From Escherichia coli (GTDB taxonomy: Bacteria > Pseudomonadota > Gammaproteobacteria > Enterobacterales > Enterobacteriaceae), in NCBI RefSeq assembly GCF_003019035.1, contig NZ_CP027448.1: DNA of 64,000 bases; one strand, written 5' to 3'. The position numbers were made by a program, and so were the translations under genes. Every line of letters starts with the position of its first letter. The first letter of the stretch is position 1. Below are positions 4,078-51,677 of this stretch, piece by piece. Under the pieces are notes generated by a model. It ran no database searches. It had not been told where the DNA came from and saw only the letters and a list, made by a program, of their open reading frames with translations.

Positions 4078-4090
4078 CCAAAATATCCTT

Positions 4091-27120: not shown

Positions 27121-27365
27121 TCTTACAGATATTGTCAGATACCGGTTATGCCGCAAAAGCGGCATGGAAGGCCACACACAAAAATATCATATGAGTGACA
27201 ATACTGACTGGCCGAAGCCCCGCGAAGAGGTAACCCATCTTATATATACCCGGTAACTGCGCAGCCTCCTGCCAGACCATTTTTCGCGGGCACAATATTT
27301 ACAGACAACCGGAAATCCGGTCGATGAAATTGAGGTATATCAGACGACACAGCAATGCCGAAAAA

Positions 27366-33231: not shown

Positions 33232-34720
<1,489 letters not shown>

Positions 34721-34929: not shown

Positions 34930-35493
34930 TCAGGCACGCAGACGAATAATCATCGTCGGGACATCGGTATAAGCAAACGTGCCGCGCGGCAGCTCCTCGC
35001 GGACGTCAGAAAACGGTAACAGCTTCTCCTGCTGGCGTGGTCCGTTGAGACAGACGGCGACCAGCACGCCACCCGGACGCAACAGGGAAAAGGCCCGCAG
35101 GATATGCCGGATATCCTGCCCGTGGCTGAACGGCGGATTCATGATAACCCGGCTGTAATACTGCGCCGGCTGCCATTCCATGAAGTCGCCACACTGAACC
35201 CTGACACCGTTAAAATTTTCCCGCAGATACCGGACCAGCCCGCTGTTGATTTCCACCGCATCACACATGGCCCCCGGCGCGGTATCCCGAATCGCCCGCA
35301 GTATGGCCCCGGTGCCGGCAGAGGGTTCCAGAATGTGATCACGGTTGCTGATCTCCGCCAGCATCACCAGGCGATCACAGACCGGGGCAGGAGTCACAAA
35401 AAGCTGAGATTCAGCCCGGATTTCAGCAACCGGCGCGGCGTTATCCAGCCTTGCGCGCATCAGCCGGATACGTTCTCTTAACTGACTGTGCAT
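34930..35493 (-). CDS. Small SAM-dependent DNA methyltransferase-like protein (NPPF motif), orphan
   Basis: 187 aa with motif I-like EPSAGTGAIL and motif IV NPPF; no adjacent restriction enzyme. Confidence 0.7.
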   Translation of the reverse strand: MHSQLRERIRLMRARLDNAAPVAEIRAESQLFVTPAPVCDRLVMLAEISNRDHILEPSAGTGAILRAIRDTAPGAMCDAVEINSGLVRYLRENFNGVRVQCGDFMEWQPAQYYSRVIMNPPFSHGQDIRHILRAFSLLRPGGVLVAVCLNGPRQQEKLLPFSDVREELPRGTFAYTDVPTMIIRLRA

Positions 35494-35540
35494 GTCATTA
35501 TCTCCGTCATCCCCCGGGGATTTTCCCGGGGGGATATACC

Positions 35541-36902
35541 TTATTTCTGTGGAATTTCCGTGATTTTCATGTCGGTGATATACACATTCACCAGGCGGAA
35601 ATTATTGTCCATTGTGCGGCGGTAGCGGTATGCCCCGTGGTCTTCTGCTTCTGCCACACTGCGCACGGCCTTACAGTCCCGGGGCAGGGCGGCCCACTGT
35701 GCCTTTGTCATTTCCCGGAAACCTTCCCCCGGATAGTTGACTACCGGCGGACGCTTCGCGGCCTGACTGGCGACGGCAGCCTCTTCTGCCGATGGTGCTT
35801 TGTAGTCCGTGATGCGATCGGGCGTCACTTTCATCGTGCCGCTGTACCCGAGAAAACTGTAATTTGGCGTTGTGACTGAACTCACCACCCCGTTGCTTTT
35901 GTTCACACGGATGATGGTCAGCCACTCGCCCCGGCTGAAAACCTGTCCGCCCGGCTCAAAATCCTGTGTCCGGGTAACCACGCCGCCGCTTTCGTCCAGC
36001 ATGGCACGCTCATAGATCAGGCGGTTCTGATAGTGGTTAACCCAGCGTTGCTGACGCTGGATCTGCCGTTCATGACAGCGGATCGCAATTTCGCGGGCCT
36101 GCTCCGTGGTGATGATGTCATCATCCAGGGCCGACCATAACGATCGACTTCCTTCATACTGGCTTTTTTCTGCCGGGCGCGGATACGTATCCAGCGGGAA
36201 ACAGGCGCTAATATGGTCATGACTGCTGATGAGTTTTGCCATATTCAGATCCAGCGATTCAGCCCGCCACATCGTCAGATATTTCTGCGACTGTGCGATG
36301 GTCTTTTCAGCCTTGCGCAAATCAGCTTCGATTTTTTTGATACGACGCCAGCGAACGTCCGGACGTTCTTTATACTTCGCGTGAAGCAGTGCCGACCGCG
36401 CGCGTTCTTCCCAGTATTCCGCACGTTCAAAGAGCATCACGGCACGTTTCATGCCGTTTTCAATACGCTGCGCATCACGACGGGCGCGGCGTTCGCTGTG
36501 ATGCCCCACAAGAATGGGCTGACCGGGCGGGATCATCGCGGCCAGTCTTTCCACTTCATCAAGTGCCTGTGCGGATTCACTGGCCCGCTTTCCGCTGTAT
36601 CCGGTAAACCGCTCCGCCCGTGCTTCCTGACGTTCAGCGAGCGTGCTGTCTTCATCCTCAATCTCTCCGGCAAGTGAGAGGAGCACGTCTTCCCGGCCCG
36701 GTGTCCAGGCTGGCGCGACAAACAGCGCCTGTTTGGGTGCCCAGCGAAAACCGGCATCATGCACTTTTTTATACGTCTCCGGGTCGAGGCGTGACGCGGC
36801 ATACAGGCGCAGTTTGTTGTCATCCGGTGAGTAGGTCGCGCGGTACATCTGCACAGGGCTGGCGGCTTCCGGGGCGGTCATGGTGATGGCTGCTAATGTC
36901 AT
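35541..36902 (-). CDS. Conserved leading-region protein (DUF3560-like, 453 aa)
   Basis: Long ORF, charged/helical middle region; family name from memory, unverified. Confidence 0.6.
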   Translation of the reverse strand: MTLAAITMTAPEAASPVQMYRATYSPDDNKLRLYAASRLDPETYKKVHDAGFRWAPKQALFVAPAWTPGREDVLLSLAGEIEDEDSTLAERQEARAERFTGYSGKRASESAQALDEVERLAAMIPPGQPILVGHHSERRARRDAQRIENGMKRAVMLFERAEYWEERARSALLHAKYKERPDVRWRRIKKIEADLRKAEKTIAQSQKYLTMWRAESLDLNMAKLISSHDHISACFPLDTYPRPAEKSQYEGSRSLWSALDDDIITTEQAREIAIRCHERQIQRQQRWVNHYQNRLIYERAMLDESGGVVTRTQDFEPGGQVFSRGEWLTIIRVNKSNGVVSSVTTPNYSFLGYSGTMKVTPDRITDYKAPSAEEAAVASQAAKRPPVVNYPGEGFREMTKAQWAALPRDCKAVRSVAEAEDHGAYRYRRTMDNNFRLVNVYITDMKITEIPQK

Positions 36903-36953
36903 AAAATGTTCTCCTTCCGTCTGTTGCCGCCCCTCGCGGGGCGGCTCACCTCA

Positions 36954-37184
36954 TCAGTTAAAAGCGCGTTTCAGTTCGAGTGTGCGGAGCACCTGCCCGA
37001 AGGCCGTGTTTTTCATGGCGGGGATGTGTACACCACGCCCCCGGTGAAAACTCCGGGCTATGTGTCGCCCGAAGGCTTTCAGCACGGGGTCAATTTCCGG
37101 CGCGGGGATGTCTTCGCGTCTGAAACGGGGATGACGGCGGGGCTTTACAGCCGCTGCGGAAGGTGAAACAATACTTACCGTCAT
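36954..37184 (-). CDS. Small basic hypothetical protein (76 aa)
   Basis: AAGGAG RBS 8 nt upstream of ATG 37184; first ORF downstream of repeat copy 3. Confidence 0.45.
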   Translation of the reverse strand: MTVSIVSPSAAAVKPRRHPRFRREDIPAPEIDPVLKAFGRHIARSFHRGRGVHIPAMKNTAFGQVLRTLELKRAFN

Positions 37185-37420
37185 AAATGAAACTCCTTAT
37201 GACTGTTGAATGGAACCGCAGAAACTGCTCGAACAGTTTTTGCGGTGTGGATTAAGCAGGTCCTCCCCGGCCTGCTTTTTTCATATCTGCGTCTGACGTT
37301 CTCCGGTGTTTTCCTCCTTCTGTTCCTGCGTTCTCATTACCTGCCAGCCGGATGACTGACAGAACAAATAAATGCGTATTGCCGGAGCCTGAAATAAATC
37401 CTGATTTTTAAAGAACATCA

Positions 37421-38033
37421 CCCGTTGAGTTTCGGGAGCCGCGGTTTTGACGTTTCGCGGGAACCTGCTGCTGTATTCCCTGTGGTATGAACTTCACCCG
37501 TTTGAGAACCTTCGCCGCAAGGGGCATCACTGCCACGGCCTGACGCACCTGTCCTGGGCAGAACGCAAAATTTTTTACCGGGTTTGGGGTAAAAAATTTT
37601 GTGGGCTGTTCATTTACCCTGGACAGTCAGTGCGGCAGGTTGTGGCTGTATCAGCCCCCGGCGACAGGGACTCATACGGGTGTGTGGCACCCGGCAGGCA
37701 ATGAGCAGGGACCCGCCGCAACGACGGAGAGCGCGTGCGCGAAACGGCGTTGCCCCTTACATCCCGGCGGCCTTTTGCCGGGATGCCAGGAGCGCAGGCC
37801 ACGGCGCGACAGAGGCGGCGCGACCGGAACGGTCGCTGCAAGCCAGGGGGTTTCACGCATCGGACCGTAGCGGCAGCCCGAAACCGCGCCAGCGGGTTCG
37901 GCGGAGACTGGCAGGTGCGCCAGCAGCTGCCTGTCGGAGTCGGGCCTGACGACCGGATGCCGCCAGGCAGCCGGGAGCCGAAGGTGCGCCCGGCAGACAG
38001 AACAACACTGCAGTAGTCAGAATCAGAGCAGCA
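37421..38033 (+). repeat. Structured leading-region repeat, copy 3 (Frpo/ssi-like), diverged 5' part
   Basis: 3' two-thirds nearly identical to copies 1 and 2; 5' part diverged but hairpin retained with compensatory changes (37563-37603). Confidence 0.75.
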
Positions 38034-38224
38034 GATAAAGGAACAACAACAACATCAGGAACAGTTCCACAACATAAGAAAGAAACACTCCTGAGTCAGA
38101 CACATCACAGACGGGAAGGGTAACGGGCGACGCGCCAGCGTGGCCCGCTTCCCTTCCGGCAGGCGTCAGCCTGCCAGGGGTTTTCGCGCGGGCTGACAGG
38201 CGGCCTCCACCGCCTGCCCCTGTA

Positions 38225-38416
38225 TCACCTGTTTCTGCTGCCCTGTAAGATGTAGTGACCGCCCAGGAAAACCGCCTGCTGATTCGCCACAAAATCGCAG
38301 ATTTCATCAACAATCTGCGCGGTGGTGAGCGGTTTCTGCCCCATTTCACGACGCCGCGCATTAATCACGGCCCTGTAATTACGCAGAATTTCGCGGGTTT
38401 CTGTGCTGATATTCAT
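38225..38416 (-). CDS. Small hypothetical protein (63 aa)
   Basis: ATGA overlap with upstream gene (38413-38416) suggests translational coupling. Confidence 0.45.
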   Translation of the reverse strand: MNISTETREILRNYRAVINARRREMGQKPLTTAQIVDEICDFVANQQAVFLGGHYILQGSRNR

Positions 38417-38835
38417 GACATCGTCTCCCCGTCCAGCGCCTGTAACACAACGTCCATTGCTTCGCGTTCCTCCCTGACGAATGCGTCACCGTCGCCCCCG
38501 TTCTCACTCCCGACGGCATACAGGCGCTTCATTTCACTGCCTGCCAGCGCCATCACTTTTTCCAGCATCACCGCCGGGACTGTCACATGACGGCTGGCGC
38601 GCTTTTCTTCCATCAGTTCACGAACAACGTCGTGAACAACGCTGACATCCGCACCATGCTCAAAGGCATCGTCCAGCCGCTGCATGACGGTTTCCAGCTC
38701 ATCGTCTGCCAGACTCCAGTCCTGAGCTATGTGGCGCACATCCCCACGGGTCAGCACCACGGCAAAAACGCATTCACTGTCCGGCACGTCTGTATCCAGC
38801 ACTTCGCGGATAATTTCTTTAACAGTACAGTACAT
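38413..38835 (-). CDS. Acidic leading-region protein (DUF1380-like), paralog of 40542-40976
   Basis: 140 aa starting MYCTVKEII...; shares MY.T....RE.... N-terminus and acidic character with the 144-aa ORF. Confidence 0.6.
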   Translation of the reverse strand: MYCTVKEIIREVLDTDVPDSECVFAVVLTRGDVRHIAQDWSLADDELETVMQRLDDAFEHGADVSVVHDVVRELMEEKRASRHVTVPAVMLEKVMALAGSEMKRLYAVGSENGGDGDAFVREEREAMDVVLQALDGETMS

Positions 38836-38881
38836 GTTCTCGTCTCCTTTACAGGGGCGGCATTGCCGCCCCGTCCGTTAA

Positions 38882-39307
38882 TCAGTCCAGTGCCGCGTAA
38901 ATCGCGTTACATTCGGGGTGAAATTCGATGTGGCTCCACAACTGCGCATCGCGCATCCTGTACAGGTGAGTCAGTCCTGCATCACCGCTGTCGTGGTACA
39001 GCCACAACTGACGGTTAATCACAAGGGAAGTCACAATGATGCCTGCGGCATCGGCGCTGACCGTACGGTCAAACCAGTTTTCACCGTTCACCATGTGGAA
39101 ACGGTCGCCATCCGGCATCATGTAACCGCCACCGTCCGGCAGGCGGATGAAGTGCCAGAATCCGCCTTCATATTCCGGCATCATTTTTTTCGCCAGCGCG
39201 TACACAGATGCCTCGGCATACAGAAAATCATTGCCAAACAGATACAGCAGAAAGGAGAGACGGTCGCATTCTTCAACATTCAGAGTGACAGGTTTCGCAT
39301 ACTGCAT
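38882..39307 (-). CDS. ardB: ArdB/KlcA-family anti-restriction protein (141 aa)
   Basis: ...[21 protein letters not shown]...[23 protein letters not shown]... matches remembered ArdB/KlcA pattern; start at ATG 39307 with GGAGG RBS (track ORF begins 39487). Confidence 0.78.
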
Positions 39308-39719
39308 GGGATTTCCTCCGTTGTTCACATATTCCGCGACACCGGGCGGTGCCGTGCCTCCATAAAAGCCGGGCGATAAGGCGGGGATGCACAGGGCGCA
39401 AGGGAAGCCGCAGCCTGACGCACACGGCTGACGGGAGTTGGAGGGGGAGACCGCGAAATCTGAGCGGGTGAACGACCGGAAAATCACGGCAGACGGGAAG
39501 GAGGGACCGGGTGACCGCAGCGTTCATTTTACCCTTGCATCCCCGCCAGCCCGGCTAAGATGGAGGCACGGCACAGCCCGCACACGACACGGTGGCCACA
39601 TAACTGAAAACCCACAAGGCCATGCCTGCATGGCCGGGTAAAGCGGAGCCGGCGGCGACTTCCTTTGTGCTCTGTCCGGGGACCGGCAGAAAAAAAAGCG
39701 GGGATTTTCCCCGCCATCA

Positions 39720-40496
39720 TCAGCCCCTGATTTTTGCCAGGGCATCCGCCATGCTGCGGATTTCGGCCCGGGCTTCCCGGACAACTTCCCGCAGAACACC
39801 ACGGTCAAACCTCTGGCGGGGCGGTTCATCCGGTATACGCAGCACATCGCAGGCCAGCCCACTGGACAGGATATGTTCAATACAATCGCTGACCAGATAC
39901 ATTTCCACCGCCGAAAAACGTGCGCCCCGGTTCAGGATGGCATCGAGCACCACGGGCAGGTTTTCGTCGTCCTCATCGAGCCAGCAGGGGTGATCGCTTT
40001 CCTTCACGACCAGGCGAAAGCGGCGCGTCTGGCGGGTCAGTAACGTCTGACCAGTGGTGGTCAGCGCCGCCCGGATACGCCGCGTATCTTCTGCCACCCG
40101 GCAACTGACACTGCGTACCGCATCGCGCACCGCCGCAAGTACAGCCCTGATTTCGTCTTCGGTCAGCCATTCACCGGCATACGGAAAAGACACCTGCGTT
40201 CCGTCTGCCGGAAGTACCGGCAGCGACTGCCACTGACTGCCGGACAGTACAAGTTCCTCCCCGGTTCCGGTCAGTTTGTGAATGGCGGAGGCCAGGAGCG
40301 GCGGCAGTACGCCGCCGTGACGGTTTATAAGTAACGTCGCCAGCTGGGGCGCATCCAGCCGCACGTAAATGCTGATCCAACCCGGATAGTTCGGGTTTCG
40401 CTGGTCAACATCAGTCTCTTCCGGCCAGCCCTGCGCCAGCAGCAGGTCGCGGGCGTGACGACAAATCAGTGCATTCAGCGTTGTGTTTTCGTTCAT
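39720..40496 (-). CDS. Hypothetical leading-region protein (258 aa), function unknown
   Basis: Uninterrupted ORF in operon context; no family recognised. Confidence 0.55.
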
Positions 40497-40541
40497 GATT
40501 AATCGTTCTCCCTGTATCGCCGCCCGGAGGCGGCGATAACA

Positions 40542-40976
40542 TCAGTCGTTTTCGTGTGTGTTGTTTTTCAGCAGGCTGCGGGTCTGATTAACCACCGCCT
40601 GACGGCGGGTGACGCATTCCGGGACGGCGAGGCCGTTATCACGGGCGGCCCATTCACGCTTCCACAGTGCCTGTTCAGCGGTCTGAATCAGGGACGCCAG
40701 CAGTTCAGCAGGGACGGTCACCTGGCGGTTTTCACTCACGTTGCTGATAATCTCCATCGCCGCACAGGAAGAAATACCGGACTCAGTCCGCTGGTCTTCC
40801 GGGATGTCCTCCAGCCGCGCCAGGACGGTCCTGATTTCATGATCGGACAGGGAAATATCCATTCCGTCAGCGAGGGCCTGAGTTTCTTCCGGGGACCAGA
40901 TAACCAGCATCAGCGGCGTGTCTCCCGGATACTGCGCTGCCAGCTCCCGGCACAGCGTTTCGCATGTTCCGTACAT
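40542..40976 (-). CDS. Acidic leading-region protein (DUF1380-like), paralog of 38413-38835
   Basis: 144 aa starting MYGTCETLCRELA... Confidence 0.6.
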   Translation of the reverse strand: MYGTCETLCRELAAQYPGDTPLMLVIWSPEETQALADGMDISLSDHEIRTVLARLEDIPEDQRTESGISSCAAMEIISNVSENRQVTVPAELLASLIQTAEQALWKREWAARDNGLAVPECVTRRQAVVNQTRSLLKNNTHEND

Positions 40977-40989
40977 TCTCGTCTCCTTC

Positions 40990-41211
40990 TCAATCTTTGA
41001 AGCAGGAATCCAGTTCCAGAATTTCGGTATACGCCTCCATAAACAGGCGATTGGCGCGATACAGCGTCTGGCGTGTCAGGCGTTCAACAAGCACATCGGA
41101 ATCAAAGCGACAGCGATGCTCCATATCGTTCAGCCTGGCCCGAAGGTCACACATGGTGTTGGCCACCTCCGCCACGTCGGCGCGAAGTTTTTCGTGTCCG
41201 GCATAGTTCAT
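40990..41211 (-). CDS. Small hypothetical protein (73 aa)
   Basis: Directly abuts the upstream methyltransferase gene (41212). Confidence 0.45.
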   Translation of the reverse strand: MNYAGHEKLRADVAEVANTMCDLRARLNDMEHRCRFDSDVLVERLTRQTLYRANRLFMEAYTEILELDSCFKD

Positions 41212-41895
41212 TTACGCAGCCTCCGGTTCAAACCAGTTATCATTCGCGGCCCCCTGCTGCATGGCCCGTTGCACGGCGGCCATTCGTTGCTGTCCGGCAC
41301 GGTGATACTGTTCAAGCAGCTCGATACCGATATACCGGCGTCCGGACTGAAGGGCGACCACGCAGGTTGAGCCGCTGCCTGCAAACGGGTCCAGCACAAT
41401 CGCGTTCGGATGTGTGAAGCTCTCAATCAGTGGTTGCAGGCTGGTAACGGGCTTTTCCGTCGGGTGATGGCGGTTGCCTGAATATTTCCAGCCCAGCACG
41501 TCCGGCAGCAGGTTTTGTGGCAGACGTGGACGGCCTTTTGCCAGGATGTAGGCGCATTCGTGGCGATAGCCCACATATGCGGCCTTCGATGTGTAGTTTT
41601 TGGTGAAGACCAGGTGCTCGACCACACTGAATCCCGCATTTTTCCAGGCGGCCATAAAGCGATCGACGCGGTTCCAGCCATAGAGGCTCACCATCAGCGC
41701 GTCTTTTTTCAGCACACGGTACATTTCATTACAGGCCGGTTGCAGCCATTCATCGGTTTTATCACCCGCGATGGTACGTCCCTGACGGTCACGAAAACCG
41801 ACGAGGTACGGCGGGTCAGTCAGCATGAAATCAATGGCGTTATCAGGGATACGGGCCATAACATCGATGCAGTTACCGAGGACAAAACGGGACAT
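41212..41895 (-). CDS. DNA methyltransferase (N6-adenine/N4-cytosine family, DPPY motif), orphan
   Basis: 227 aa with DPPY (motif IV) preceding FAGSGST (motif I); no cognate nuclease nearby. Confidence 0.85.
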   Translation of the reverse strand: MSRFVLGNCIDVMARIPDNAIDFMLTDPPYLVGFRDRQGRTIAGDKTDEWLQPACNEMYRVLKKDALMVSLYGWNRVDRFMAAWKNAGFSVVEHLVFTKNYTSKAAYVGYRHECAYILAKGRPRLPQNLLPDVLGWKYSGNRHHPTEKPVTSLQPLIESFTHPNAIVLDPFAGSGSTCVVALQSGRRYIGIELLEQYHRAGQQRMAAVQRAMQQGAANDNWFEPEAA

Positions 41896-42278
41896 AACAA
41901 CGCTCCTTCTTTCACAGAGGGCACCGGGAGGGCCCCCTGTGGTGCCCGTTCCCCGCTGCCTGTGGGCTGTTCACCGCGTCCGGTAACTGGTCAGGCCGAC
42001 CGTGGAATACCGCAGCCGTCGTCTTTTTGACGGCAAGGTTATGCCGCGAAAGCGGCTTGAAGGGCGTTCATCAGAAAAGGGCGACGGGCTGGCGTACACT
42101 GTCACCGACGCCAGCCGGGAGCGGTAAAAGCGACCGTTCCGTGCCCGCCGGACGCGGGACACTGACCACAGGCAGCGTTCCTGCCGCGCCGCGTCAGCCG
42201 GCGCAGTAAAAAGAGGAGCACGGCGACATCCTTTGTCGGAAAAGAAACGGGCGGTTGCCCGCCCGTCTCCGTCATACT

Positions 42279-43205
42279 TCATCCGCCATAATGCGCCACA
42301 TTGTCGACTATCCACGCAGGTCCGGTGACCTCCGGCAGCTCATCGTCATCTGTCGGGGAAGACCATTCCTGTTCCCCCCACAGAACATCAACAAGCTCTC
42401 CACGCTCATATCGCTGCCAGCCACAGAAATTGCAGCCCTGTTCGGCATACCAGTGCTCCAGCGTGCAGCCGAAACGGCGGCTTAATTCTGCAACAACGTC
42501 GCTTTCCGGCTGACACCACGGCGTGTCAAAATCCACCTGAATGAAGTTTTCTCCCTGACGGCCGATATTCAGGTCATACCCACAAGGCCACTTCACGCCA
42601 TACCGTTCCGTATACCAGTGATATGCAGAAGGAACACCGTTCAGAACACCACCGTTAAAGCCGTTCACTTCAACATCCAGGCGGGTCGGCAGAACCGTCA
42701 GCAGGTCAAACGGCATGGTTTTTTCCGGCACTACGTTGTCACACAGACGGTTCCACCACACCGATACATCCTCGTTACTCCAGAAGCCACACCAGTCACC
42801 TCTTTTTGCGGTGAAAAGTGCGGTGATGGTATCCCTGACATCGTCCGGTAATCCTTCCCAGCGACGCTGTCCAGTACCGCTCTGCAGCCAGAGTTCATGC
42901 AGCATCAGGCAGTTTTGCTCATCCAGCAGTACACCGTCCTGCAGATATGTCAGCCAGCGGGTGAACGCGATATTCTCCGGCGATACAACGCCACGCCCGG
43001 CAGCCGTCAGTCCGGGGCATGGTTCAAACCGCACATCTTCAGTGGTCTGCAGAAGTCCGGCACTTCCGGCCAGAAACAGCTGAATACCTTCATTTGTGGC
43101 GCGGCGATAAAGCGGTGTGACTGCGCCGCTGGCCAGTCGTTTAATCTCAGCGATCTGTGCCGGTTCACCAGAAAAATACATACGATTCGAGCACCAGTTT
43201 GGCAT
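42279..43205 (-). CDS. Conserved leading-region protein with MPNWCxN N-terminus (DUF1281/Api92-like as recalled), 308 aa
   Basis: ATG 43205 preceded by GAGGAGA; track ORF starts 43250. Family name from memory. Confidence 0.65.
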   Translation of the reverse strand: MPNWCSNRMYFSGEPAQIAEIKRLASGAVTPLYRRATNEGIQLFLAGSAGLLQTTEDVRFEPCPGLTAAGRGVVSPENIAFTRWLTYLQDGVLLDEQNCLMLHELWLQSGTGQRRWEGLPDDVRDTITALFTAKRGDWCGFWSNEDVSVWWNRLCDNVVPEKTMPFDLLTVLPTRLDVEVNGFNGGVLNGVPSAYHWYTERYGVKWPCGYDLNIGRQGENFIQVDFDTPWCQPESDVVAELSRRFGCTLEHWYAEQGCNFCGWQRYERGELVDVLWGEQEWSSPTDDDELPEVTGPAWIVDNVAHYGG

Positions 43206-43559
43206 GGGAATTCTCCTCTCACATGCGGCCTCCATCAGGCCGTGCCGCACCTGTAACCGGGCGACCGCATACGAATGCAGGTGCGGCCCCGAAGCCGCAG
43301 CGCGTGGAGGAGGAACGACGAAACGTGACCGGGTGAGGAGGCCGGCGACAGCGACACACTTGCATCGGATGCAGCCCAGTTAACGTGCCGGCACGGCCTG
43401 GGTAACCAGGTATTTTGTCCACAGAACCGTGCACAAAATGCTGTGGATAAGCTGGACACAGCAGCCCACAGCAGGCATACAGCCACACCCTCAGAGAATT
43501 GAACGTTTTTTAGCCGCAACAATGACATTTGACTGTATGTGGATTCAGTTATTAGAATG

Positions 43560-43575
43560 CTGTATATGCATACAG
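43560..43575 (+). promoter_or_regulatory. LexA operator (SOS box) upstream of impC
   Basis: CTGTATATGCATACAG fits CTGT-N8-ACAG; a weaker CTGTATGTGGATTCAG lies at 43542-43557. Confidence 0.75.
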
Positions 43576-43598
43576 CAAAAGAAAAGAGAGATGAGAAC

Positions 43599-43847
43599 AT
43601 GATCCGCATTGAAATTCTTTTCGACCGCCAGAGCACAAAAAACCTCAAATCAGGCACACTTCAGGCGCTACAGAATGAAATCGAACAACGACTGAAACCA
43701 CACTACCCGGAAATCTGGCTGCGTATAGACCAGGGCAGCGCCCCGTCTGTATCTGTCACAGGAGCCCGCAACGACAAGGATAAAGAACGTATCCTGTCTC
43801 TGCTGGAAGAAATCTGGCAGGACGACAGCTGGCTGCCTGCAGCATGA
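43599..43847 (+). CDS. impC: DinI-like small protein (ImpC-like)
   Basis: 82 aa MIRIEILFDRQ...EEIWQDDSWLPAA; start chosen downstream of the LexA box. Confidence 0.75.
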   Translation: MIRIEILFDRQSTKNLKSGTLQALQNEIEQRLKPHYPEIWLRIDQGSAPSVSVTGARNDKDKERILSLLEEIWQDDSWLPAA

Positions 43848-44281
43848 GTACCGTTTATCACCGTCCGGCTGACCCTTCAGGCGATGACAGTTACGTGCGA
43901 CCGTTGTTTGCCGATCGTTGCCAGGCCGGTTTTCCTTCGCCTGCCACTGATTATGCTGAGCAGGAACTGGATCTGAACAGCTATTGCATCAGCAGACCTG
44001 CAGCCACCTTCTTTCTGCGCGCCAGCGGTGAATCGATGAACCAGGCTGACGTGCAGAATGGTGATCTGCTGGTAGTGGACAGGGCCGAAAAACCACAACA
44101 CGGGGACATCGTTATCGCTGAGATCGACGGTGAGTTCACCGTCAAACGACTGCTGTTGCGCCCACGCCCGGCACTGGAGCCGGTTTCAGACAGCCCGGAG
44201 TTCCGCACACTGTATCCGGAAAACATCTGTATTTTTGGTGTTGTCACTCACGTGATACACAGGACGCGGGAGTTACGCTGA
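43844..44281 (+). CDS. impA: UmuD/ImpA-like S24 peptidase subunit of error-prone polymerase
   Basis: 145 aa with Ser-Lys dyad context (ASGESM ... FTVKRL). Confidence 0.88.
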   Translation: MSTVYHRPADPSGDDSYVRPLFADRCQAGFPSPATDYAEQELDLNSYCISRPAATFFLRASGESMNQADVQNGDLLVVDRAEKPQHGDIVIAEIDGEFTVKRLLLRPRPALEPVSDSPEFRTLYPENICIFGVVTHVIHRTRELR

Positions 44282-44407
44282 TGTTTACACTGGCTGATAT
44301 CAACAGTTTCTACGCCTCATGTGAAAAAGTTTTCCGCCCGGACCTTCGCAACGAACCGGTCATCGTACTCAGCAATAACGATGGCTGTGTGATCGCACGC
44401 AGCCCAG
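44281..44407 (+). pseudogene. impB: 5' fragment of umuC/impB-like Y-family polymerase gene, interrupted by insertion
   Basis: Translates MFTLADINSFYASCEKVFRPDLRNEPVIVLSNNDGCVIARSP then homology is lost at 44408. Confidence 0.85.
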
Positions 44408-44453
44408 ATTATGTGGAATTGCAAGTAACGTTGTAGTGCTGATGAGGAAAATT

Positions 44454-46682
44454 TTATCTGACTACAATATTGATATCGTTTTCCGCAACAATCAGCATCA
44501 CGGCAGGTAAACCCTCCACACGCATTTTCTGGTGTAATTTTTTGATTAAATTATCATCTTCATTACTGGCTTTTGCGGAAAAGCCTTGTGGATGGGAGTG
44601 CCATTCGCCAACATAATCGACAACACGAGCGGTCAACTGGTGAACCCGTTCTAATGCTTCTTGTTGTCCCGCTTCTCCCCGGACAAAGGAGGCTGGAGAG
44701 GATTTACTGTCGATAGGTTCAGGGAGCACGTCAACCAGAATAATCGTTTTGTTCTTAAAATCTGTTATGCCAACAATTGCACCTCCTGTTTCATTAGGCA
44801 GTGCCTGTAAGCGGGTGTGCTGCAATTTTTGCGCTAAGCCCTGGTCATATTTAACAACCCATTCGCCAGAAATTATAGATACCACGGAATAGAGTTCAAT
44901 TTCATGTGCATCCATCGCGCCTGATATTTCATCAGATACCCAGATACACAATCGAGCATTTCCTTTGAGTGCAGTCTGGCGAAGTTGGCGTGAGAGGATA
45001 CCGGCATGAACATGAATACATTCACTGGACATACGTACAGAAATATCCCGACATCCACCACCGACCCAACGATCGCCATAATTGTGCTGTAGGTGAGTAC
45101 TTCCCCACTCACTGCTCAAAATTGCCCGATAGTATTGCCCCTCAATTGCATCAATTCGGCATTGTCTGTCTACATCCTCCATTAACATCACGCTAGACTG
45201 ACCCGATGGAGTCAGAAACAGGCTAACTATTCTGGGTATATCATCTTTTAACACTAGAGTCCTCGGCACCTCAAAGGTGGTACTGACATCCACAACTAAG
45301 TCTGCCTCATTCATTGCCTTAGCAATATCATCATCGTCATCAAGAATACTTTTATGGATCGCCTGAGGGAGGGGCTCATGCGGATAAATAGATTTGGCAA
45401 TATGCTGAATAATATGGGGTTTTGAGACTCCAATATGACAATCAAACCCAATATGGCGAGACAAATTATGTGGAAGAAGCCGATCTGGATCAATAAAAGT
45501 CCATGTCCCCCACCCCATTCGAATCCAAATATCAGCCAATGTACTACCAAGAGCGCCAACTCCAGCTAAAATACCTCGAAAAGCTGCACTCTCTGAATCA
45601 ACAGCAGATATGTCTCTCGCATGTGTGGCCTTCATAGCCGAACGTATTTCAACTGGTAAAAGCGGTAATTGTCGCCACTTGGTACTAATTGATCCGCCAA
45701 GAAGCCGTACGCGATGCTGTACTCCTCGCTCATTTTTTGGCGCCAGCATATCTAGTGCAGTGGCAAGTTCACCGAGTGAACTTTGCACAACATAGCCCAT
45801 CACATCCGTACGTTCTGTTTCTCCGTTTCTTAGACGGGGGATCCAAAGCAGGATAAGTAAGCCTTCTCCTTTACCAGACGTTGGGCGGATACCATCACTT
45901 GGTATTGCTTCATAAACAGCGTCAGTTAGTGGTTTTAGGAGCTCACTTCCCCATTCATTAAGTTGTTCTTCTAATTTTCCCAGATTATCCGGGTATGTAG
46001 CCACCGTAGAAACATCGACAGGAGGAACAGCAATAGTTAATAAGCGAAATGGCTTAACGCTTGAGGTATCTTGTTCTGGTACAGCCCTTAAAATAATCGG
46101 TCGCCCCTCACTGACCATCTGGAGACTGAGCTTATTGTCAGTCGCGTGATGATAATCGGGGTAATTGGCTGGCAAAATGAGCTGATAGGGACTCAAATAA
46201 AAAAGTTGCTCAAGTGGCTGATCTTCTCGATGTAGATGCAGTTCGGCCGATTCTCTAAGCCACCAAAAAATGCGCTCAAGGAATCTCTCGGGGGTCCAAC
46301 TGCGCTCAACTGCGCTCCAGGAGGCCTCATATAGGCAAAGAATTCGTGGTGAGCCAGGTTCTCCAGCATGCTGGTGAGAAAGAACAGGGAAATCTTTCCG
46401 CAATGCATGAACCAAGATAGGTATGCTTGATTTGGGATTGACCTCAATAGCCAATCGTTCTTTACGACGAATACGGGCTTGATTACCAGAAGCCACAGTC
46501 CCATCAGCAGCATCAATGATTAGATATTCCGAGCGGTTATCATTTATTTCAGAAAATCGTAATTCTCTGACTGTGACGTAAGGATGATTCTCGCATGCTT
46601 TAAGCAGCGAAATCGTTTGTGGATAAAGGCTATCGCGCCCCGATGAATCGAGGCGCTCACCCAATTCGAAATATTCGATCAT
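44454..46682 (-). CDS. Multidomain E2-like / E1-like (ThiF) / JAB-JAMM peptidase fusion protein (742 aa)
   Basis: HQH..10 aa..C (E2-like), GILAGVGALGSTLADIW...IDPD (ThiF Rossmann), EWHSHPQGFSAKASNEDD (JAMM HxH..S..D) read directly from the translation; ATGA overlap with upstream MBL gene. Confidence 0.75.
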   Translation of the reverse strand: MIEYFELGERLDSSGRDSLYPQTISLLKACENHPYVTVRELRFSEINDNRSEYLIIDAADGTVASGNQARIRRKERLAIEVNPKSSIPILVHALRKDFPVLSHQHAGEPGSPRILCLYEASWSAVERSWTPERFLERIFWWLRESAELHLHREDQPLEQLFYLSPYQLILPANYPDYHHATDNKLSLQMVSEGRPIILRAVPEQDTSSVKPFRLLTIAVPPVDVSTVATYPDNLGKLEEQLNEWGSELLKPLTDAVYEAIPSDGIRPTSGKGEGLLILLWIPRLRNGETERTDVMGYVVQSSLGELATALDMLAPKNERGVQHRVRLLGGSISTKWRQLPLLPVEIRSAMKATHARDISAVDSESAAFRGILAGVGALGSTLADIWIRMGWGTWTFIDPDRLLPHNLSRHIGFDCHIGVSKPHIIQHIAKSIYPHEPLPQAIHKSILDDDDDIAKAMNEADLVVDVSTTFEVPRTLVLKDDIPRIVSLFLTPSGQSSVMLMEDVDRQCRIDAIEGQYYRAILSSEWGSTHLQHNYGDRWVGGGCRDISVRMSSECIHVHAGILSRQLRQTALKGNARLCIWVSDEISGAMDAHEIELYSVVSIISGEWVVKYDQGLAQKLQHTRLQALPNETGGAIVGITDFKNKTIILVDVLPEPIDSKSSPASFVRGEAGQQEALERVHQLTARVVDYVGEWHSHPQGFSAKASNEDDNLIKKLHQKMRVEGLPAVMLIVAENDINIVVR

Positions 46683-47866
46683 TGGTTTGATACACCTGCC
46701 CTAGGAGCGGCGGCCGTAGCAGCACTTACCGCAGCTGAAACAGCACCAACAATAGCGGGTATTAACTTCCCGTCTCCAGCCACTTCAAATTCAAGGAACG
46801 CTGTATCTTTAAGATCCCCCGTACAGCTAAACCAACCATCAACACTGTCCAGAATATCCTCATACTCACGCTTAGCCCGGATGCACGGTGGATCATAATC
46901 ATCATCAAGTATCTGATTGCTACTCGATACAATTGTTGCCCCGGAACGAGCCTGACCTAAAGCATTACGGGCCGCATCACAAACTTCAGCATTCTCCCCC
47001 CATTGTGACCAGCTATCATAGGAAAGTGAATGCCATGAACAATGATGCGGTGTGAGGAGAAGATCATATTCTAGTGCCTCAGCATTGCTTTTGTAACGAT
47101 CCCATAATCGCTCCCAGATGAGAACTTCTGCGTCTCCACCTAATAGAAAGTGCATAGGATTACGGGAATATGCAGAGGGCAGTATTTTCATGTTCATGAT
47201 GATACTGGATTCGTTTTTAGAAAGAGCTTCTTCCAAATATTCATCATCTTCATGTGGTGCGGGCGCCAGAAGCTGTGCGGAGAACACTTCTGAAATTTGC
47301 CCGTCAATTCTGGTGAATGTATCTCCAGCTTTGATAAGAATGGCACTCAGATCATCTGTTTTGCCATTAATATCTTCACCCATGATAAGGATTCGATTAC
47401 CGCTAGATGCATAACCATGTTCCCGCCAGTATTTTACTCGGCGCCGTGCTTCTGTATTAAATGCCTGAGCATCTTCGCAAAGTGTGTGACTTTTGGAACG
47501 ACGCCGAAAAATCAATGGTGATGACCACAATTCTCGAATAATGATACGCTTTTCTGAACGTTTCACATCGTCATCTGGATAATCTTCAGGACGGCCCAGC
47601 CAGAAATGTTTACGCAGGCCACCGCAATGATCCTGATCGGGATGACTGAGCATAAAAACATCAATAAAGGGACGATCTTTTTCATCATACTTCAATCTGC
47701 TACGTAATGCCGAGGCAACATCAGGTGTGTCATCATTGGGGTTATCAGCAGCAGAGCGAATATGTACATCAATCAGAATGGATGTGCCCCGGGTGTCGGC
47801 CAAACGTACCAGTGTCATATCACCGTTGCCGACTTGGAAAAAAGTAATTTTGGCTGCCATCGACAT
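46679..47866 (-). CDS. Metallo-beta-lactamase-fold protein (395 aa) with Ala/Gly-rich C-terminal tail
   Basis: MBL-like motifs ...LIDVH..., SHPDQDHCGG, ...TPHHCSWH...; C-terminus ...AIVGAVSAAVSAATAAAPRAGVSNQ. Confidence 0.75.
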   Translation of the reverse strand: MSMAAKITFFQVGNGDMTLVRLADTRGTSILIDVHIRSAADNPNDDTPDVASALRSRLKYDEKDRPFIDVFMLSHPDQDHCGGLRKHFWLGRPEDYPDDDVKRSEKRIIIRELWSSPLIFRRRSKSHTLCEDAQAFNTEARRRVKYWREHGYASSGNRILIMGEDINGKTDDLSAILIKAGDTFTRIDGQISEVFSAQLLAPAPHEDDEYLEEALSKNESSIIMNMKILPSAYSRNPMHFLLGGDAEVLIWERLWDRYKSNAEALEYDLLLTPHHCSWHSLSYDSWSQWGENAEVCDAARNALGQARSGATIVSSSNQILDDDYDPPCIRAKREYEDILDSVDGWFSCTGDLKDTAFLEFEVAGDGKLIPAIVGAVSAAVSAATAAAPRAGVSNQ

Positions 47867-47994: not shown

Positions 47995-48849
47995 ATGAGT
48001 GATAAAATGGTGAGAACTGGTCATTGGAGCCAAGAAAGACGGCTTGAATTCATCGATTTTCGCCTACTGTGGGAAGGTCGGCTTAACCGTGCAGATCTCA
48101 CGACATTTTTCAGAATTTCAGTTCCGCAAGCCTCATTAGATTTGGCAAAATATCAAGAAGTTGCGCCAAACAACATGGTGTATGATCGAACTCAGAAGGC
48201 TTACATTACGACTCCTGATTTCAAACCTGTTTTTACAAGCTTTGACAGTAATCATTACCTGAATGAACTACTTGGGCGAGAAAATGAAATAGTGGATCCT
48301 GATGATAGTTTCATTGGGTGGGTACCCCCGGTAGCCAGCCTTCCTCTCCCTGCCAGGAAAGTACAACCTGAAATATTGATTGATTTAATTCGAGCCATGC
48401 AAAGAAAACAGGCTTTGGTTGTTGATTATCGCTCAATGACTAATGAACCAGCAATTCGTACGCTATACCCAACAGCATTTGCACATGATGGGCATCGGTG
48501 GCATGTTCGTGCTTATTGTTTTAAGTCTACAATGTTTAAAGATTTTGTTCTTGGTAGGTTTTTTAAAATCGTTGAATTTGTTTCCCCACCGACATCAATT
48601 CCACAAGATGTGGACTGGAATACATTTATTGACGTGGTAATAGGTCCAAACCCTAACTACGATATGAATAAACGGCTATCTATTGAACATGATTATCAAA
48701 TGGTAAAAGGAGAAGCAAAAATCCACATACGTAAAGCGCAATTATATTATCTTAATCGTCGATTAAATTTGGATGTAAATAGCGATGGTTCAATAGATGA
48801 CAAACAGCAGATCATCATGCTCAGAATAGACGAGTCTAAAACCTATTAA
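47995..48849 (+). CDS. HTH-WYL domain transcriptional regulator (BrxR/CapW-like)
   Basis: 284 aa; central ...HDGHRWHVRAYCFKSTMFKDFVLGRFFKI... fits the WYL pattern; N-terminal HTH-like region. Confidence 0.7.
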   Translation: MSDKMVRTGHWSQERRLEFIDFRLLWEGRLNRADLTTFFRISVPQASLDLAKYQEVAPNNMVYDRTQKAYITTPDFKPVFTSFDSNHYLNELLGRENEIVDPDDSFIGWVPPVASLPLPARKVQPEILIDLIRAMQRKQALVVDYRSMTNEPAIRTLYPTAFAHDGHRWHVRAYCFKSTMFKDFVLGRFFKIVEFVSPPTSIPQDVDWNTFIDVVIGPNPNYDMNKRLSIEHDYQMVKGEAKIHIRKAQLYYLNRRLNLDVNSDGSIDDKQQIIMLRIDESKTY

Positions 48850-49426: not shown

Positions 49427-50746
49427 TTACTTTCTCTTATTTCCTGGGGTCGCGCCCCCAGTGAGCTTATTCAAAAGTTTGTCCACTGCCTGTATATCGT
49501 TTTCTACAGCGGCTTGTTCGTCATCAGTCAAAGGGATTTCCTGCATCAGCTTGAGTAGATTCTGGCGACCTTCCAAGTATTGTGCTTCAGATGAAGATTT
49601 TGGCATATAAAATGAGCATTTTGCACATGCCATCCGATGGGGGCATTGCTCAAAAAAGTCATAAGTACAGAAACCGTGTCCAAGATCATAATAACGCCAT
49701 GGCTTCCCGGATGCTACCAGCCCTTCAGCTATCGCGTCTTGATCAATGAGAACTGAAACCATGCGGCGATTACATTCAAAGTAACCAGCTTTATCCAGTG
49801 ATCCTGCCAACCTCGTCGGTGTAATTTCGACATAATGTCGGGTAGATTCAGGTGAAGAATGCCCCAACCATTTCTGTAGCTCAAAAATATCAAGTGGTTC
49901 CCTGGCGTTGTAAAGCTGACTGGCTATAGTGGCTCTTGCCCGATGGCTGGTGATTTTACCTCTGGCATCCTGCTCAGGTATACCAGCCTTTCTGCATAGC
50001 AAAGGGATTAGCGAATTATTAATATAACTACTGTGTACCCGTTTCCCCCTGTGCATGAACAAAAAACGGACGCTTTCACCTGTTTTAGAATCTTCCTGGA
50101 GGGGGTGGGGGTTACGAACAAGTTCCCATTGTTCGATATATTCCCCGATAATAGGGTCAACTGGCTTTGTGAATGCCGCGTAAGTCTTGCTAACGGGTAC
50201 ATCTATCAGACAGATACGGGATACATTATTTTCTTCTGGCTGTTGCCAGCGGATACACCCACACTGCATACGTAGAATTTCATCACGTCTGAGGCCTCCA
50301 AATAACCAGAGAACGCTGAGTGCTCTGACCATCTCCAGTGGATAAAAATAAGGATATGCAACACAGTTTGGTAAATCCGACTCCTGCAGGTTCTGTCCGG
50401 CGTGAAGTAATTTACACCACATATCATCGGCCACAATACGAGGCTCTGGTCCAACCAGGGAAGTCAAGCTACGCGGTGCCCTGAAAACTCTTTCTGGGCT
50501 GAATCGTACAGGTATCCATCCCCATTCCTGCAAGTCATGAAAGAAAGTTCTAATATGACCCAACATCCTGGCTCTCGCTGCAGGCATCATCATTTTGCCA
50601 CGACGGTCACGATACATGCCCCCAGGGGTTGCCCATTCACCAACTTTCATTCTACAAGCGGCGGTCACCCAGACGATCGCGGTGTCCCGTGTCCAATCAG
50701 ATGGTGACAGACAGGTTGGATAGCACTCAGCTAACCAGCTGACCAC
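49427..50746 (-). CDS. Tyrosine recombinase/integrase (439 aa)
   Basis: Catalytic signature residues: ...GGLRRDE..., ...SHRARAT..., ...LGHSSPESTRHYV... Confidence 0.85.
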   Translation of the reverse strand: MVSWLAECYPTCLSPSDWTRDTAIVWVTAACRMKVGEWATPGGMYRDRRGKMMMPAARARMLGHIRTFFHDLQEWGWIPVRFSPERVFRAPRSLTSLVGPEPRIVADDMWCKLLHAGQNLQESDLPNCVAYPYFYPLEMVRALSVLWLFGGLRRDEILRMQCGCIRWQQPEENNVSRICLIDVPVSKTYAAFTKPVDPIIGEYIEQWELVRNPHPLQEDSKTGESVRFLFMHRGKRVHSSYINNSLIPLLCRKAGIPEQDARGKITSHRARATIASQLYNAREPLDIFELQKWLGHSSPESTRHYVEITPTRLAGSLDKAGYFECNRRMVSVLIDQDAIAEGLVASGKPWRYYDLGHGFCTYDFFEQCPHRMACAKCSFYMPKSSSEAQYLEGRQNLLKLMQEIPLTDDEQAAVENDIQAVDKLLNKLTGGATPGNKRK

Positions 50747-51677
50747 ACTTTAGCAAAACGTACCAACCGGACAAAATAGATGAAGGGCGAAGTACTGAGG
50801 TAGCACGCCACCGTTTGCACCATACCAGCCATTTAGTTGGTACATCAGCTGTTGCATTATATTCGCGGGGAGGACGGCGACGTTGTGTTATTCGGTAATC
50901 AACCCCTTCCTCAATAGTCCCTGATGCAGCCAGTATACGCGATAGAGTAGCTGAGGCTTCCCGGAGGGAATCCGGGCACGTTGCAGCAATCTGTTGCAAC
51001 GTGGTCACGGTGATATGGTCTAGTTGAGCATCCCTTTGCAGAAGCATTGCCATACACATGGCATTTCTGATGCCGTTGTTCCGACTATCACGAGGCACAT
51101 ATCCCAGAACCTGCATCATATTGTCAAGCTGGCTGACGGCAAAATCGGTGCTCTGTCGGCCAAAAACCTTAAGACAGAGCCGATATTGATAGAATATGCC
51201 ACAGTGTTCCAGCCGCTCAAACCCACATAGCAACCATGCTAACGCTATAACATATTGCCGACAGTTGCCGCTGGCTCCAAACCGTCGACGAAATTCCCCT
51301 TCGCTGTTGCAAATAACTTCTAACCACTCTTCTTGTGTCCAGGCCCAGTATGTTTTCCGGATGCGCTGCATCTCTAGGACTATATCGTGAATAGATGAAT
51401 TGTAGGGGGCCTTGGCCGCATGCATTTTTGTTAGCGTGTCGCGTAGTGGTAAAAGAAGGCGGGAAAGCCGTTTTTGTATATCAGGTGACCAGTTTTTACC
51501 TCCTTGCTGGAAGTGGTCGACCAATGTATCCAGTGCCGCAAGCTCGCTTTCAGAGATCTCCGATCGGGTATCCCAAAGTAGGGCAGGAAGACTGAGTGAT
51601 GTTGTCGGACAAGGCGCTGTATGTTCAGATTGCATCATGGAGAAGGATCCTGCTGTTGTAGTACAGTAAGGCGGCAA
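50727..51677 (-). CDS. Recombinase-operon middle gene (316 aa), divergent/uncertain
   Basis: Overlaps both neighbours (translational coupling); no clear R-H-R-Y motifs seen by eye. Confidence 0.55.
   Translation of the reverse strand: MPPYCTTTAGSFSMMQSEHTAPCPTTSLSLPALLWDTRSEISESELAALDTLVDHFQQGGKNWSPDIQKRLSRLLLPLRDTLTKMHAAKAPYNSSIHDIVLEMQRIRKTYWAWTQEEWLEVICNSEGEFRRRFGASGNCRQYVIALAWLLCGFERLEHCGIFYQYRLCLKVFGRQSTDFAVSQLDNMMQVLGYVPRDSRNNGIRNAMCMAMLLQRDAQLDHITVTTLQQIAATCPDSLREASATLSRILAASGTIEEGVDYRITQRRRPPREYNATADVPTKWLVWCKRWRATSVLRPSSILSGWYVLLKCGQLVS

Follow-up and report, generated by a model that had tools for sequence, protein, structure and literature searches.

Predicted early units headed by single-stranded DNA promoters in the leading region of an F-type plasmid of Escherichia coli

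Sequence analysis was carried out for a 64,000-nucleotide (nt) stretch of Escherichia coli DNA (contig NZ_CP027448.1 of assembly GCF_003019035.1; hereafter the window), with emphasis on the gene cluster located at positions 38225–43205. The best explanation of this cluster, to which a probability of about 0.8 is assigned, is that of three early units in the leading region of an F-type plasmid, each headed by a single-stranded DNA (ssDNA) promoter. One unit would consist of a class-2-type hairpin and the DUF1281 gene. Another would comprise a class-3 hairpin followed by the genes for an orphan DNA methyltransferase, YubE, DUF1380 copy A and YchA and would end at an intrinsic terminator. The remaining unit would be headed by the hairpin ssp2 and include the genes for KlcA/ArdB, DUF1380 copy B and a protein of 63 amino acids (aa), closing with a GC-rich hairpin. 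According to the proposed model, each head hairpin would form only in the single-stranded incoming DNA, where it would rebuild a sigma-70-like promoter. RNA polymerase of the recipient would then transcribe the units within minutes of entry, and synthesis of the complementary strand would shut them off. The module represents the known early-entry region of F-type plasmids, which is already part of the literature, and the window brings no special variant of it. Minor refinements contributed here are the promoter assignments, the hairpin upstream of the DUF1281 gene, a mis-annotated open reading frame (ORF), the gene neighbourhoods of YchA and of the 63-aa protein, and the orphan fold of YchA.

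The window represents an F-type (IncF) conjugative plasmid, and the cluster occupies the part of its leading region that is distal to the origin of transfer (oriT). An exact match to GTGGGGTGTGGTGCTTT, which we take to be the F nick sequence, was found on the plus strand. It is flanked on one side by traM (25813–26196) and the tra operon, which runs on the minus strand from traM downwards, and on the other side by psiA, psiB, a ParB-like gene and ssb, so that the leading-region location named in an earlier note on this DNA was confirmed. The transferred strand is the plus strand from approximately position 26520 upwards and enters the recipient with its 5' end first; the cluster is located 11.7–16.7 kb away from the nick. 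All genes between 27.5 and 43.2 kb, including psiA, psiB, the ParB-like gene, ssb and then the cluster, are encoded on the minus strand, and the transferred strand thus serves as their template.

The cluster had previously been described as tightly packed and encoded on a single strand. The latter holds for all genes, but the packing is interrupted by two non-coding gaps of approximately 400 nt (39308–39719 and 41896–42278), each holding a large conserved hairpin. Three long inverted repeats, designated I1, I2 and I3, stand out in the region (Table 1). Repeat I1 forms ssp2, which showed a folding z-score of −4.9 and is 83% identical to the element Frpo' 4 of Samuel et al. (2024, PMC11541004). 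For the class-3 hairpin, formed by repeat I2, a z-score of −5.7 was obtained, and 19 of its 94 pairs showed compensatory changes in an alignment of seven loci. Moreover, nucleotide identity of the class-3 element amounts to 74–80% in loci where the flanking genes share only about 50%. No match to it was found among the Frpo and ssi sequences published by Samuel et al. Based on DNA energy parameters, the transferred strand of ssp2 exceeds its complement in stability by 5 kcal/mol, and that of the class-3 element folds 6–10 kcal/mol better than the complement in four homologues. Known Frpo copies showed the same asymmetry in favor of the transferred strand.

In order to characterize the class-2 elements, an alignment of 12 sequences was compiled, comprising ssp2, the element upstream of the DUF1281 gene and ten relatives, namely elements preceding klcA or ardA on diverged plasmids plus Frpo' 4, Frpo* 1 and Frpo* 3 of Samuel et al. 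The blocks GCCGTGCC, AAGCCGCA, GAmCGGGTGA, CTTG, TAnnnT and GGCACGGC are common to all 12 elements. Within the consensus hairpin, 93.1% of the cells represent standard pairs, compared to 32–39% when the 3' partners were slid, and compensatory changes occur in 28 of the 52 pairs versus 5–10 in the slid versions. In 500 column shuffles, no observed measure was ever attained. Furthermore, the hexamers TTGnnn and TAnnnT, candidates for −35-like and −10-like motifs, are conserved in every element, with a counted spacer of 15 nt.

The hairpin upstream of the DUF1281 gene (repeat I3) carries all invariant class-2 blocks (GCCGTGCC, AAGCCGCA, GACCGGGTGA, CTTGCA, TAAnnT and GGCACGGC) and fits the covarying structure of the family. 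As judged from these sequence features, it is a putative promoter as well. In an otherwise identical plasmid (locus L006), a gene for a group II intron reverse transcriptase (3636–5360; domains RVT_N, RVT_1, GIIM and HNH) was observed between the dinI-like gene and the DUF1281 gene, and the insertion position of this intron is that of the hairpin.

Table 1. Features of the leading-region cluster and its boundaries in the window.
Feature	Position	Strand	Characteristics
oriT nick-site sequence	26511–26527	+	Exact match to GTGGGGTGTGGTGCTTT; sets the plus strand as transferred strand
Class-1 (Frpo/ssiD-type) ssDNA promoter	37427–37759	+	78% identical to F ssiD; heads the next operon; oriT-proximal boundary of the cluster
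GC-rich hairpin downstream of the 63-aa gene, possible operon end	38114–38157	−	Repeat I5; no T-run
63-aa basic protein	38225–38416	−	Isoelectric point (pI) 9.8; named only 'plasmid protein'; homologues at 47–60% identity; dN/dS 0.07–0.33
DUF1380 copy B (YcjA/YubJ), 140 aa	38413–38835	−	pI 4.41; 27% identical to copy A; phrog_9024
KlcA/ArdB anti-restriction protein (yfgB in F)	38882–39307	−	PF03230; PDB 2kmg, 2wj9
Class-2 ssDNA promoter hairpin (ssp2), upstream of klcA	39343–39580 (238 nt)	+	Repeat I1; 32-nt arms, 88% complementary
Intrinsic terminator directly after the 258-aa gene, closing the methyltransferase operon	39697–39715	−	GGCGGGGAAAATCCCCGC followed by eight T
YchA/YubG/NgrC family protein, 258 aa	39720–40496	−	Without solved or annotated fold relative
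DUF1380 copy A (YcgB/YubF), 144 aa	40542–40976	−	pI 4.55; PF07128
YubE family protein, 73 aa	40990–41211	−	PF27407
Orphan beta-class N6-adenine DNA methyltransferase	41212–41895	−	NF010253, PF01555; DPPY then FAGSG
Class-3 ssDNA promoter hairpin (ssp3 type), upstream of the methyltransferase operon	41954–42177 (224 nt)	+	Repeat I2
DUF1281/Api92-like protein (YubB/YccB/YfdA), 308 aa, acidic	42279–43205	−	PF06924, PF18406; PDB 2ijr (E=1.5e-51)
Class-2-type hairpin upstream of the DUF1281 gene (putative promoter)	43236–43400 (165 nt)	+	Repeat I3; 27-nt arms

Published results on close homologues are in line with this arrangement. According to RNA sequencing of early transconjugants by Wen et al. 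(2025, PMC12672017), the two F operons that encode homologues of KlcA and M.EcoGIX undergo induction. In the same study, new ssDNA promoter classes were defined, with class 2 located upstream of klcA and ardA and class 3 upstream of the M.EcoGIX gene; they were confirmed by 5' rapid amplification of cDNA ends in pESBL and found to be conserved in F. Fraikin et al. (2026, bioRxiv 10.64898/2026.01.09.698686) described four leading-region operons for F, each with an ssDNA promoter. They located ssp2 between yffB and yfgB, where it drives yfgB, and reported that it stalls complementary-strand synthesis until it is resolved by UvrD. Deletion of ssp2 lowered F transfer into hosts with EcoKI and EcoGIII and into several wild strains; between isogenic K-12 strains, its deletion or replacement had no effect on transfer. 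Recipient induction and the transcription starts of classes 2 and 3 were shown for close homologues in F and pESBL. The architecture of the cluster may be regarded as secure, and early ssDNA-dependent expression may be regarded so by close homology.

Several observations weigh against the proposed organization. The hairpin upstream of the DUF1281 gene is weaker (z-score of −2.7) and lacks strand asymmetry, and the F publications count four operons rather than five (Fraikin et al. 2026). Moreover, the hexamer spacing of 15 nt in class-2 elements is short for sigma-70. Expression, promoter function and anti-restriction activity would all be carried over from homologues that are 91–96% identical. 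Finally, none of the uncharacterized ORFs resembles a known anti-defense protein in sequence or structure, as deduced from the DIAMOND and Foldseek columns of PMC11541004, PADLOC, PDB profiles and the structure comparison of YchA.

All ORFs listed in the earlier note were found at their positions. Each of the eight ORFs of the cluster is preceded by a GGAG-type ribosome-binding site, and their ratios of nonsynonymous to synonymous substitution rates (dN/dS), determined pairwise with homologues ranging from 96% down to 26% identity, are between 0.07 and 0.42, from which it follows that they are real genes under purifying selection. The 63-aa gene (dN/dS 0.07–0.33) overlaps the stop of its upstream gene by 4 nt; values for the YubE gene are 0.21–0.23. 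In contrast, a 103-aa 'hypothetical protein' annotated by RefSeq at 41971–42282 (WP_032143366 family) overlies the class-3 hairpin. Because of this position over a conserved hairpin, the missing ribosome-binding site, a pI of 11.7 and dN/dS values of 0.7–1.7, it is probably not a gene but an artefact of annotation that recurs in thousands of plasmid records. That other small ORFs of the cluster are artefacts of the same kind is highly improbable, since the 63-aa and 73-aa ORFs feature, in addition to their low dN/dS values, Shine-Dalgarno sites and intact homologues at 41–60% identity.

Among the genes with assigned functions, the predicted methyltransferase matched NF010253 with 486 bits (cut-off 244) and also PF01555. 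Its DPPY motif near residue 27 precedes the S-adenosylmethionine (SAM)-binding FxGxG motif, present as FAGSG near residue 173, which corresponds to the beta-class order. No nuclease gene adjoins it, its neighbors being the YubE gene and the hairpin, and the earlier designation as an orphan DPPY methyltransferase was therefore appropriate. The gene lies in the leading region downstream of the class-3 hairpin and has the transferred strand as its template. Its dN/dS is approximately 0.1, and the F homologue, which has been called an M.EcoGIX homologue (PMC12672017), is 91% identical to the window protein. Via this F protein, the window enzyme is assigned, by sequence similarity, as an M.EcoGIX homologue. 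According to Fomenkov et al. (2020, PMC7736820), M.EcoGIX is specific for single strands, methylating DNA (SAY motif) solely in this form, and its homologues are numerous on IncI1 and IncF plasmids. The native enzyme became inactive when purified and required DNA polymerase I as its partner, and M.EcoGIX alone, expressed from a cloning vector, methylates DNA in vivo (PMC7736820).

The KlcA/ArdB assignment, likewise part of the earlier description, is based on PF03230, on PDB entries 2kmg (KlcA, E=4e-17) and 2wj9 (ArdB, E=9e-7) and on phrog_10132 (E=3e-19). The protein is 93.6% identical to YfgB of F, which in turn was tied to anti-restriction only via its 93% identity to R64 ArdB (Fraikin et al. 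2026). Inhibition of type I restriction-modification (R-M) systems by the window KlcA would thus be carried over from R64 ArdB. As shown for close homologues in F and pESBL, the M.EcoGIX-type enzyme would methylate the entering single strand and thereby protect it from type II restriction, and ssp2, by driving the yfgB homologue, would help to evade restriction of types I and II. By close homology, the methyltransferase and KlcA can be considered secure in their roles against restriction.

The remaining six proteins, i.e., the DUF1281 protein, YubE, both DUF1380 copies, YchA and the 63-aa protein, are uncharacterized, and we infer that they are real, co-transcribed cargo of the early units. 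Family memberships proposed earlier for three of them proved correct: the DUF1281-like protein (dN/dS 0.24–0.31, net charge −21) is recognized by two Pfam domains and a solved relative, and the two DUF1380-like paralogs (27% identity, E=6e-9) are acidic, with net charges of −11 and −17. Copy A (dN/dS 0.22–0.31) belongs to PF07128. Copy B (dN/dS approximately 0.22) has no Pfam match on record and matched phrog_9024 with E=2.7e-5. YubE, for which a Pfam family was created only recently, was always encoded as the downstream neighbor of the methyltransferase in the loci compared. Homologues of the 63-aa protein (47–60% identity) come after KlcA or ArdA in three diverged loci (L012, L013 and L010).

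NCBIfam, PHROGs and PADLOC scans of all ORFs provided no function for the six proteins, and all PHROG matches concerned families of unknown function. For the 258-aa and 63-aa ORFs, no match was obtained in Pfam, NCBIfam or PADLOC. DUF1380 and YubE profiles found no relative among PDB sequences, and in profile-profile comparison DUF1380 was unrelated to YchA and to KlcA. Likewise, no functional study was found in the literature on yubE/F/G/J, ychA, ycgB, DUF1380 and DUF1281. Thus, homology searches did not assign any of these ORFs to housekeeping functions, an outcome that would have spoken against the suggestion of the earlier note that they are candidates for novel anti-defense factors. They are reasonable candidates indeed, but they are not novel, as they had already been proposed in PMC11541004, and no positive evidence was found for inhibition of a defense system by any of them. 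Samuel et al. (2024) described leading regions as hotspots of anti-defense genes and listed these families among the largest uncharacterized leading-region families with proposed anti-defense roles (their Supplementary Table 1), in which YchA/YubG corresponds to family 10, DUF1380 to families 7 and 14, YubE (as YfcA) to family 11 and DUF1281 to family 27. Judging from its source name and position rank, the 63-aa protein is probably family 6 ('plasmid protein'). The DIAMOND and Foldseek columns against known anti-CRISPR and anti-restriction proteins read 'NA' for these families (PMC11541004). Since no conserved catalytic-looking residues were observed, binding to macromolecules of the host or the plasmid in the course of establishment is the most likely mode of action of the six proteins.

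An identification of the proteins as AcrIE9 or AcrIE10 was set aside on context only, as these two have been reported mainly from Klebsiella plasmids, often near flmC. Fusion proteins of the DUF1380-YchA (375–418 aa) and YubE-DUF1380 type (217–222 aa) were encountered in the protein database (hits P0006, P0056, P0081, P0268, P0291 and others). They were rejected as evidence of a complex, since they are mostly single-member clusters from assemblies and probably result from frameshifts; fusion P0056 is present on five contigs.

YchA was analyzed further. Its family is small, with 178 representatives at E≤0.001 among 1.84 billion clustered proteins, and its named matches in the AlphaFold database (AFDB) all originate from Enterobacterales. 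Modeling with AlphaFold2 and a 21-sequence alignment yielded a mean predicted local distance difference test (pLDDT) score of 88.4 and a predicted template modeling (pTM) score of 0.82, compared to a pLDDT of 41 for the single-sequence run. The model superposes on AFDB models of the YchA family with a template modeling score of 0.98; no solved or annotated fold was matched by it. Moreover, the family alignment retrieved nothing from Pfam even at E≤10, and comparison to the PDB by single sequence and by profile gave nothing meaningful. Positions A144, R155, E166 and W172 are invariant, and the lack of a conserved His, Cys or Asp pattern suggests that YchA may be a binding protein rather than an enzyme.

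Regarding its genomic context, the gene order methyltransferase-YubE-DUF1380-YchA is kept in three diverged loci, in which YchA is 38–39% identical to the window protein. In three other loci (L008, L010 and L011; 26–30% identity), no methyltransferase gene is located upstream, and the YchA gene immediately precedes that for KlcA or ArdA; in one case it comes after DUF1281. In total, the YchA homologue is located directly upstream of KlcA/ArdA, or one small ORF away, in five of the six diverged loci, and in most of them a class-2 hairpin stands between YchA and the KlcA/ArdA gene. Because this position is kept down to 26% identity, and because YchA is repeatedly found at the end of the methyltransferase operon, a functional tie to anti-restriction is conceivable. 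It is tentatively proposed, with the odds against it, that YchA represents an unrecognized class of early-establishment effectors with a fold of its own and such a tie or, in a broader sense, that at least one of the six proteins inhibits a defense by an undescribed mechanism. Possible binding partners of YchA would be a restriction or repair complex of the host or the roadblock hairpin. Locus L013, one of the three with the order from methyltransferase to YchA, contains a tandem pair of YchA paralogues (6799–8789). Furthermore, a gene for a HolE-like DNA polymerase III theta subunit (PF06440) is located just downstream of the ArdA/KlcA unit in several of the diverged leading regions examined (L008, L010, L011, L012 and L013).

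What the six proteins do within the early units can be read in several ways, which are not mutually exclusive across them. At least one of them (YubE, a DUF1380 copy, YchA, the 63-aa or the DUF1281 protein) may directly inhibit a defense other than classical R-M, such as BREX, type I-E or I-F CRISPR systems, or abortive infection. This proposal, to which a chance somewhat below even is given, is a published hypothesis; it refines the best explanation and does not strictly compete with it. Leading regions are enriched for these families, whose genes share the orientation of the anti-defense genes there, and they are predicted to be transcribed together with the genes for KlcA and a protective methyltransferase. 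The DUF1380 copies and the DUF1281 protein, which are small to mid-sized and encoded beside anti-restriction genes, are strongly acidic, reminiscent of many DNA-mimic inhibitors such as ArdA and Ocr; however, acidity is common among small cytosolic proteins, and no sequence relationship to these mimics is detectable. In F, ssp2 deletion also reduces transfer to recipients with predicted R-M or related systems (BREX, for instance), an effect that loss of KlcA alone can explain. The lack of sequence or structural likeness to any known anti-defense protein speaks against direct inhibition, as does the precedent of YfjB/HerB, a leading-region protein that reprograms the host rather than blocking a defense (PMC13370423) and from which it follows that location in the leading region alone does not imply an anti-defense role.

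The same precedent favors a defense-unrelated role in establishment, e.g., in reprogramming of host transcription or physiology, in handling of the single strand or in control of complementary-strand synthesis. The small size and basic nature of the 63-aa protein fit a nucleic-acid binder, and ssp2 itself has a non-defense role as a replication roadblock. Nevertheless, ssp2 deletion or replacement, by which expression of the ssp2 operon would be abolished, had no effect between isogenic K-12 strains, which argues against a general role of this operon in establishment, no DNA-binding or enzymatic domain was matched, and this reading is considered unlikely, though worth keeping in mind. Slightly less credit still is given to the view that YubE, DUF1380 and YchA are accessory factors that recruit the methyltransferase to the entering strand or stabilize it there, with DUF1380 copy B and the 63-aa protein assisting KlcA, so that none of them would be an independent effector. 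The conserved order from methyltransferase to YchA, kept while the partners diverge to 31–56% identity, the partner requirement of purified M.EcoGIX and the position of the 63-aa homologues after KlcA or ArdA are consistent with it. On the other hand, YchA homologues occur without methyltransferase, YubE or DUF1380 in L008, L010 and L011, and M.EcoGIX alone is active in vivo. KlcA and ArdB, too, act alone in published assays.

The region is widespread. At least 5000 PLSDB plasmids matched positions 38000–43400 at ≥90% identity in a megablast search, among them the classical F plasmid and an IncI-gamma/K1 plasmid, and query coverage of ≥80% was recorded for at least 3924 entries. The classical F plasmid shares the same genes in the same order with 94.6% nucleotide identity across 5.4 kb; its ssp3/ssp2 operons (NC_002483, 54166–57837; yfdA, yffB, yfgB) correspond to the window in genes, order and hairpins. 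Differences concern the DUF1281 protein, which aligns over its full length in the case of the window protein, whereas only about half aligns in the comparison with F, and an additional Frpo-driven operon (34930–37759) between the cluster and ssb that F lacks. The solved DUF1281 relative was deposited as 'Hypothetical protein api92', and UniProt names the domain 'YubB ferredoxin-like'. The IncI-gamma/K1 plasmid possesses an unrelated transfer system (MOBP, MPF_I) and encodes the part from the methyltransferase through the 63-aa protein at >90% protein identity, with a parM-type partition pair separating DUF1281 from the methyltransferase operon. The leading regions of the IncI1 plasmids pESBL and ColIb-P9 (M.EcoGIX, klcA, ardA) share the promoter classes and the methyltransferase and KlcA families with the window, but their conjugation machinery is of the MOBP/MPF_I type instead of MOBF/MPF_F, and ardA is missing from the window. 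Regarding the islands described by Samuel et al. (2024), these authors provided statistics and candidates without functional tests of the families and did not separate the promoter classes, and the class-3 element remained undetected. A large part of acquired antibiotic resistance in Enterobacterales is borne by F-like and IncI plasmids, and presence of the module in at least 5000 sequenced plasmids places the six genes among the most abundant plasmid genes of unknown function. Learning their roles would show how plasmids survive the first minutes in a new host and might suggest ways to block their transfer.

On its oriT-proximal side, the cluster is bounded by the class-1 promoter at the head of the next operon, an element that shares 93.6% identity with the region preceding ssb in F. 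It is the third of three Frpo/ssiD copies in the window; the other two (28673–29022 and 34096–34445) are 96% and 95% identical to F ssiD, respectively. In addition, an ssiE copy with 97% identity is located at 27115–27303. The third Frpo operon, not found in F, comprises a 76-aa ORF and the genes for a DUF3560 protein (453 aa) and a SAM-dependent methyltransferase of 187 aa, the latter resembling models of rRNA adenine methyltransferases only weakly and far below threshold. In the interval from the third Frpo copy to where the 76-aa ORF begins, the Rfam family AS-pc01 (RF02875), an antisense RNA first described on plasmid pHK01, was detected on the plus, i.e., the transferred, strand at 37179–37280 with 89.7 bits.

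Beyond the DUF1281 gene and divergent from it, a dinI-like gene, umuD and a umuC remnant form a plus-strand unit (43529–44436), which includes a sigma-70-like promoter (TTGACT-18-TAGAAT, 43529–43558) and a perfect LexA box, CTGTATATGCATACAG, at 43560–43575. The umuC gene is split: its first 51 codons are located at 44281–44436 and its last 373 residues, matching the UmuC profile from position 51, at 52720–53841, with approximately 8.3 kb between the two parts. Within the split gene, an E2/E1(ThiF)/JAB fusion protein (44454–46682), a metallo-beta-lactamase (MBL)-fold protein of the 'anti-phage 6A-MBL system' (46679–47866; NF058524, 426 bits) and a BrxR/WYL-type regulator (47995–48849) are encoded. 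These are followed by three tandem ORFs (49427–52687), of which the 350-aa product is matched strongly and the 439-aa product weakly by tyrosine-recombinase profiles, the 316-aa product not being matched. The insert has the appearance of a mobile element of the recombinase-trio kind, through which a defense system came to lie right beside the anti-defense region of the plasmid.

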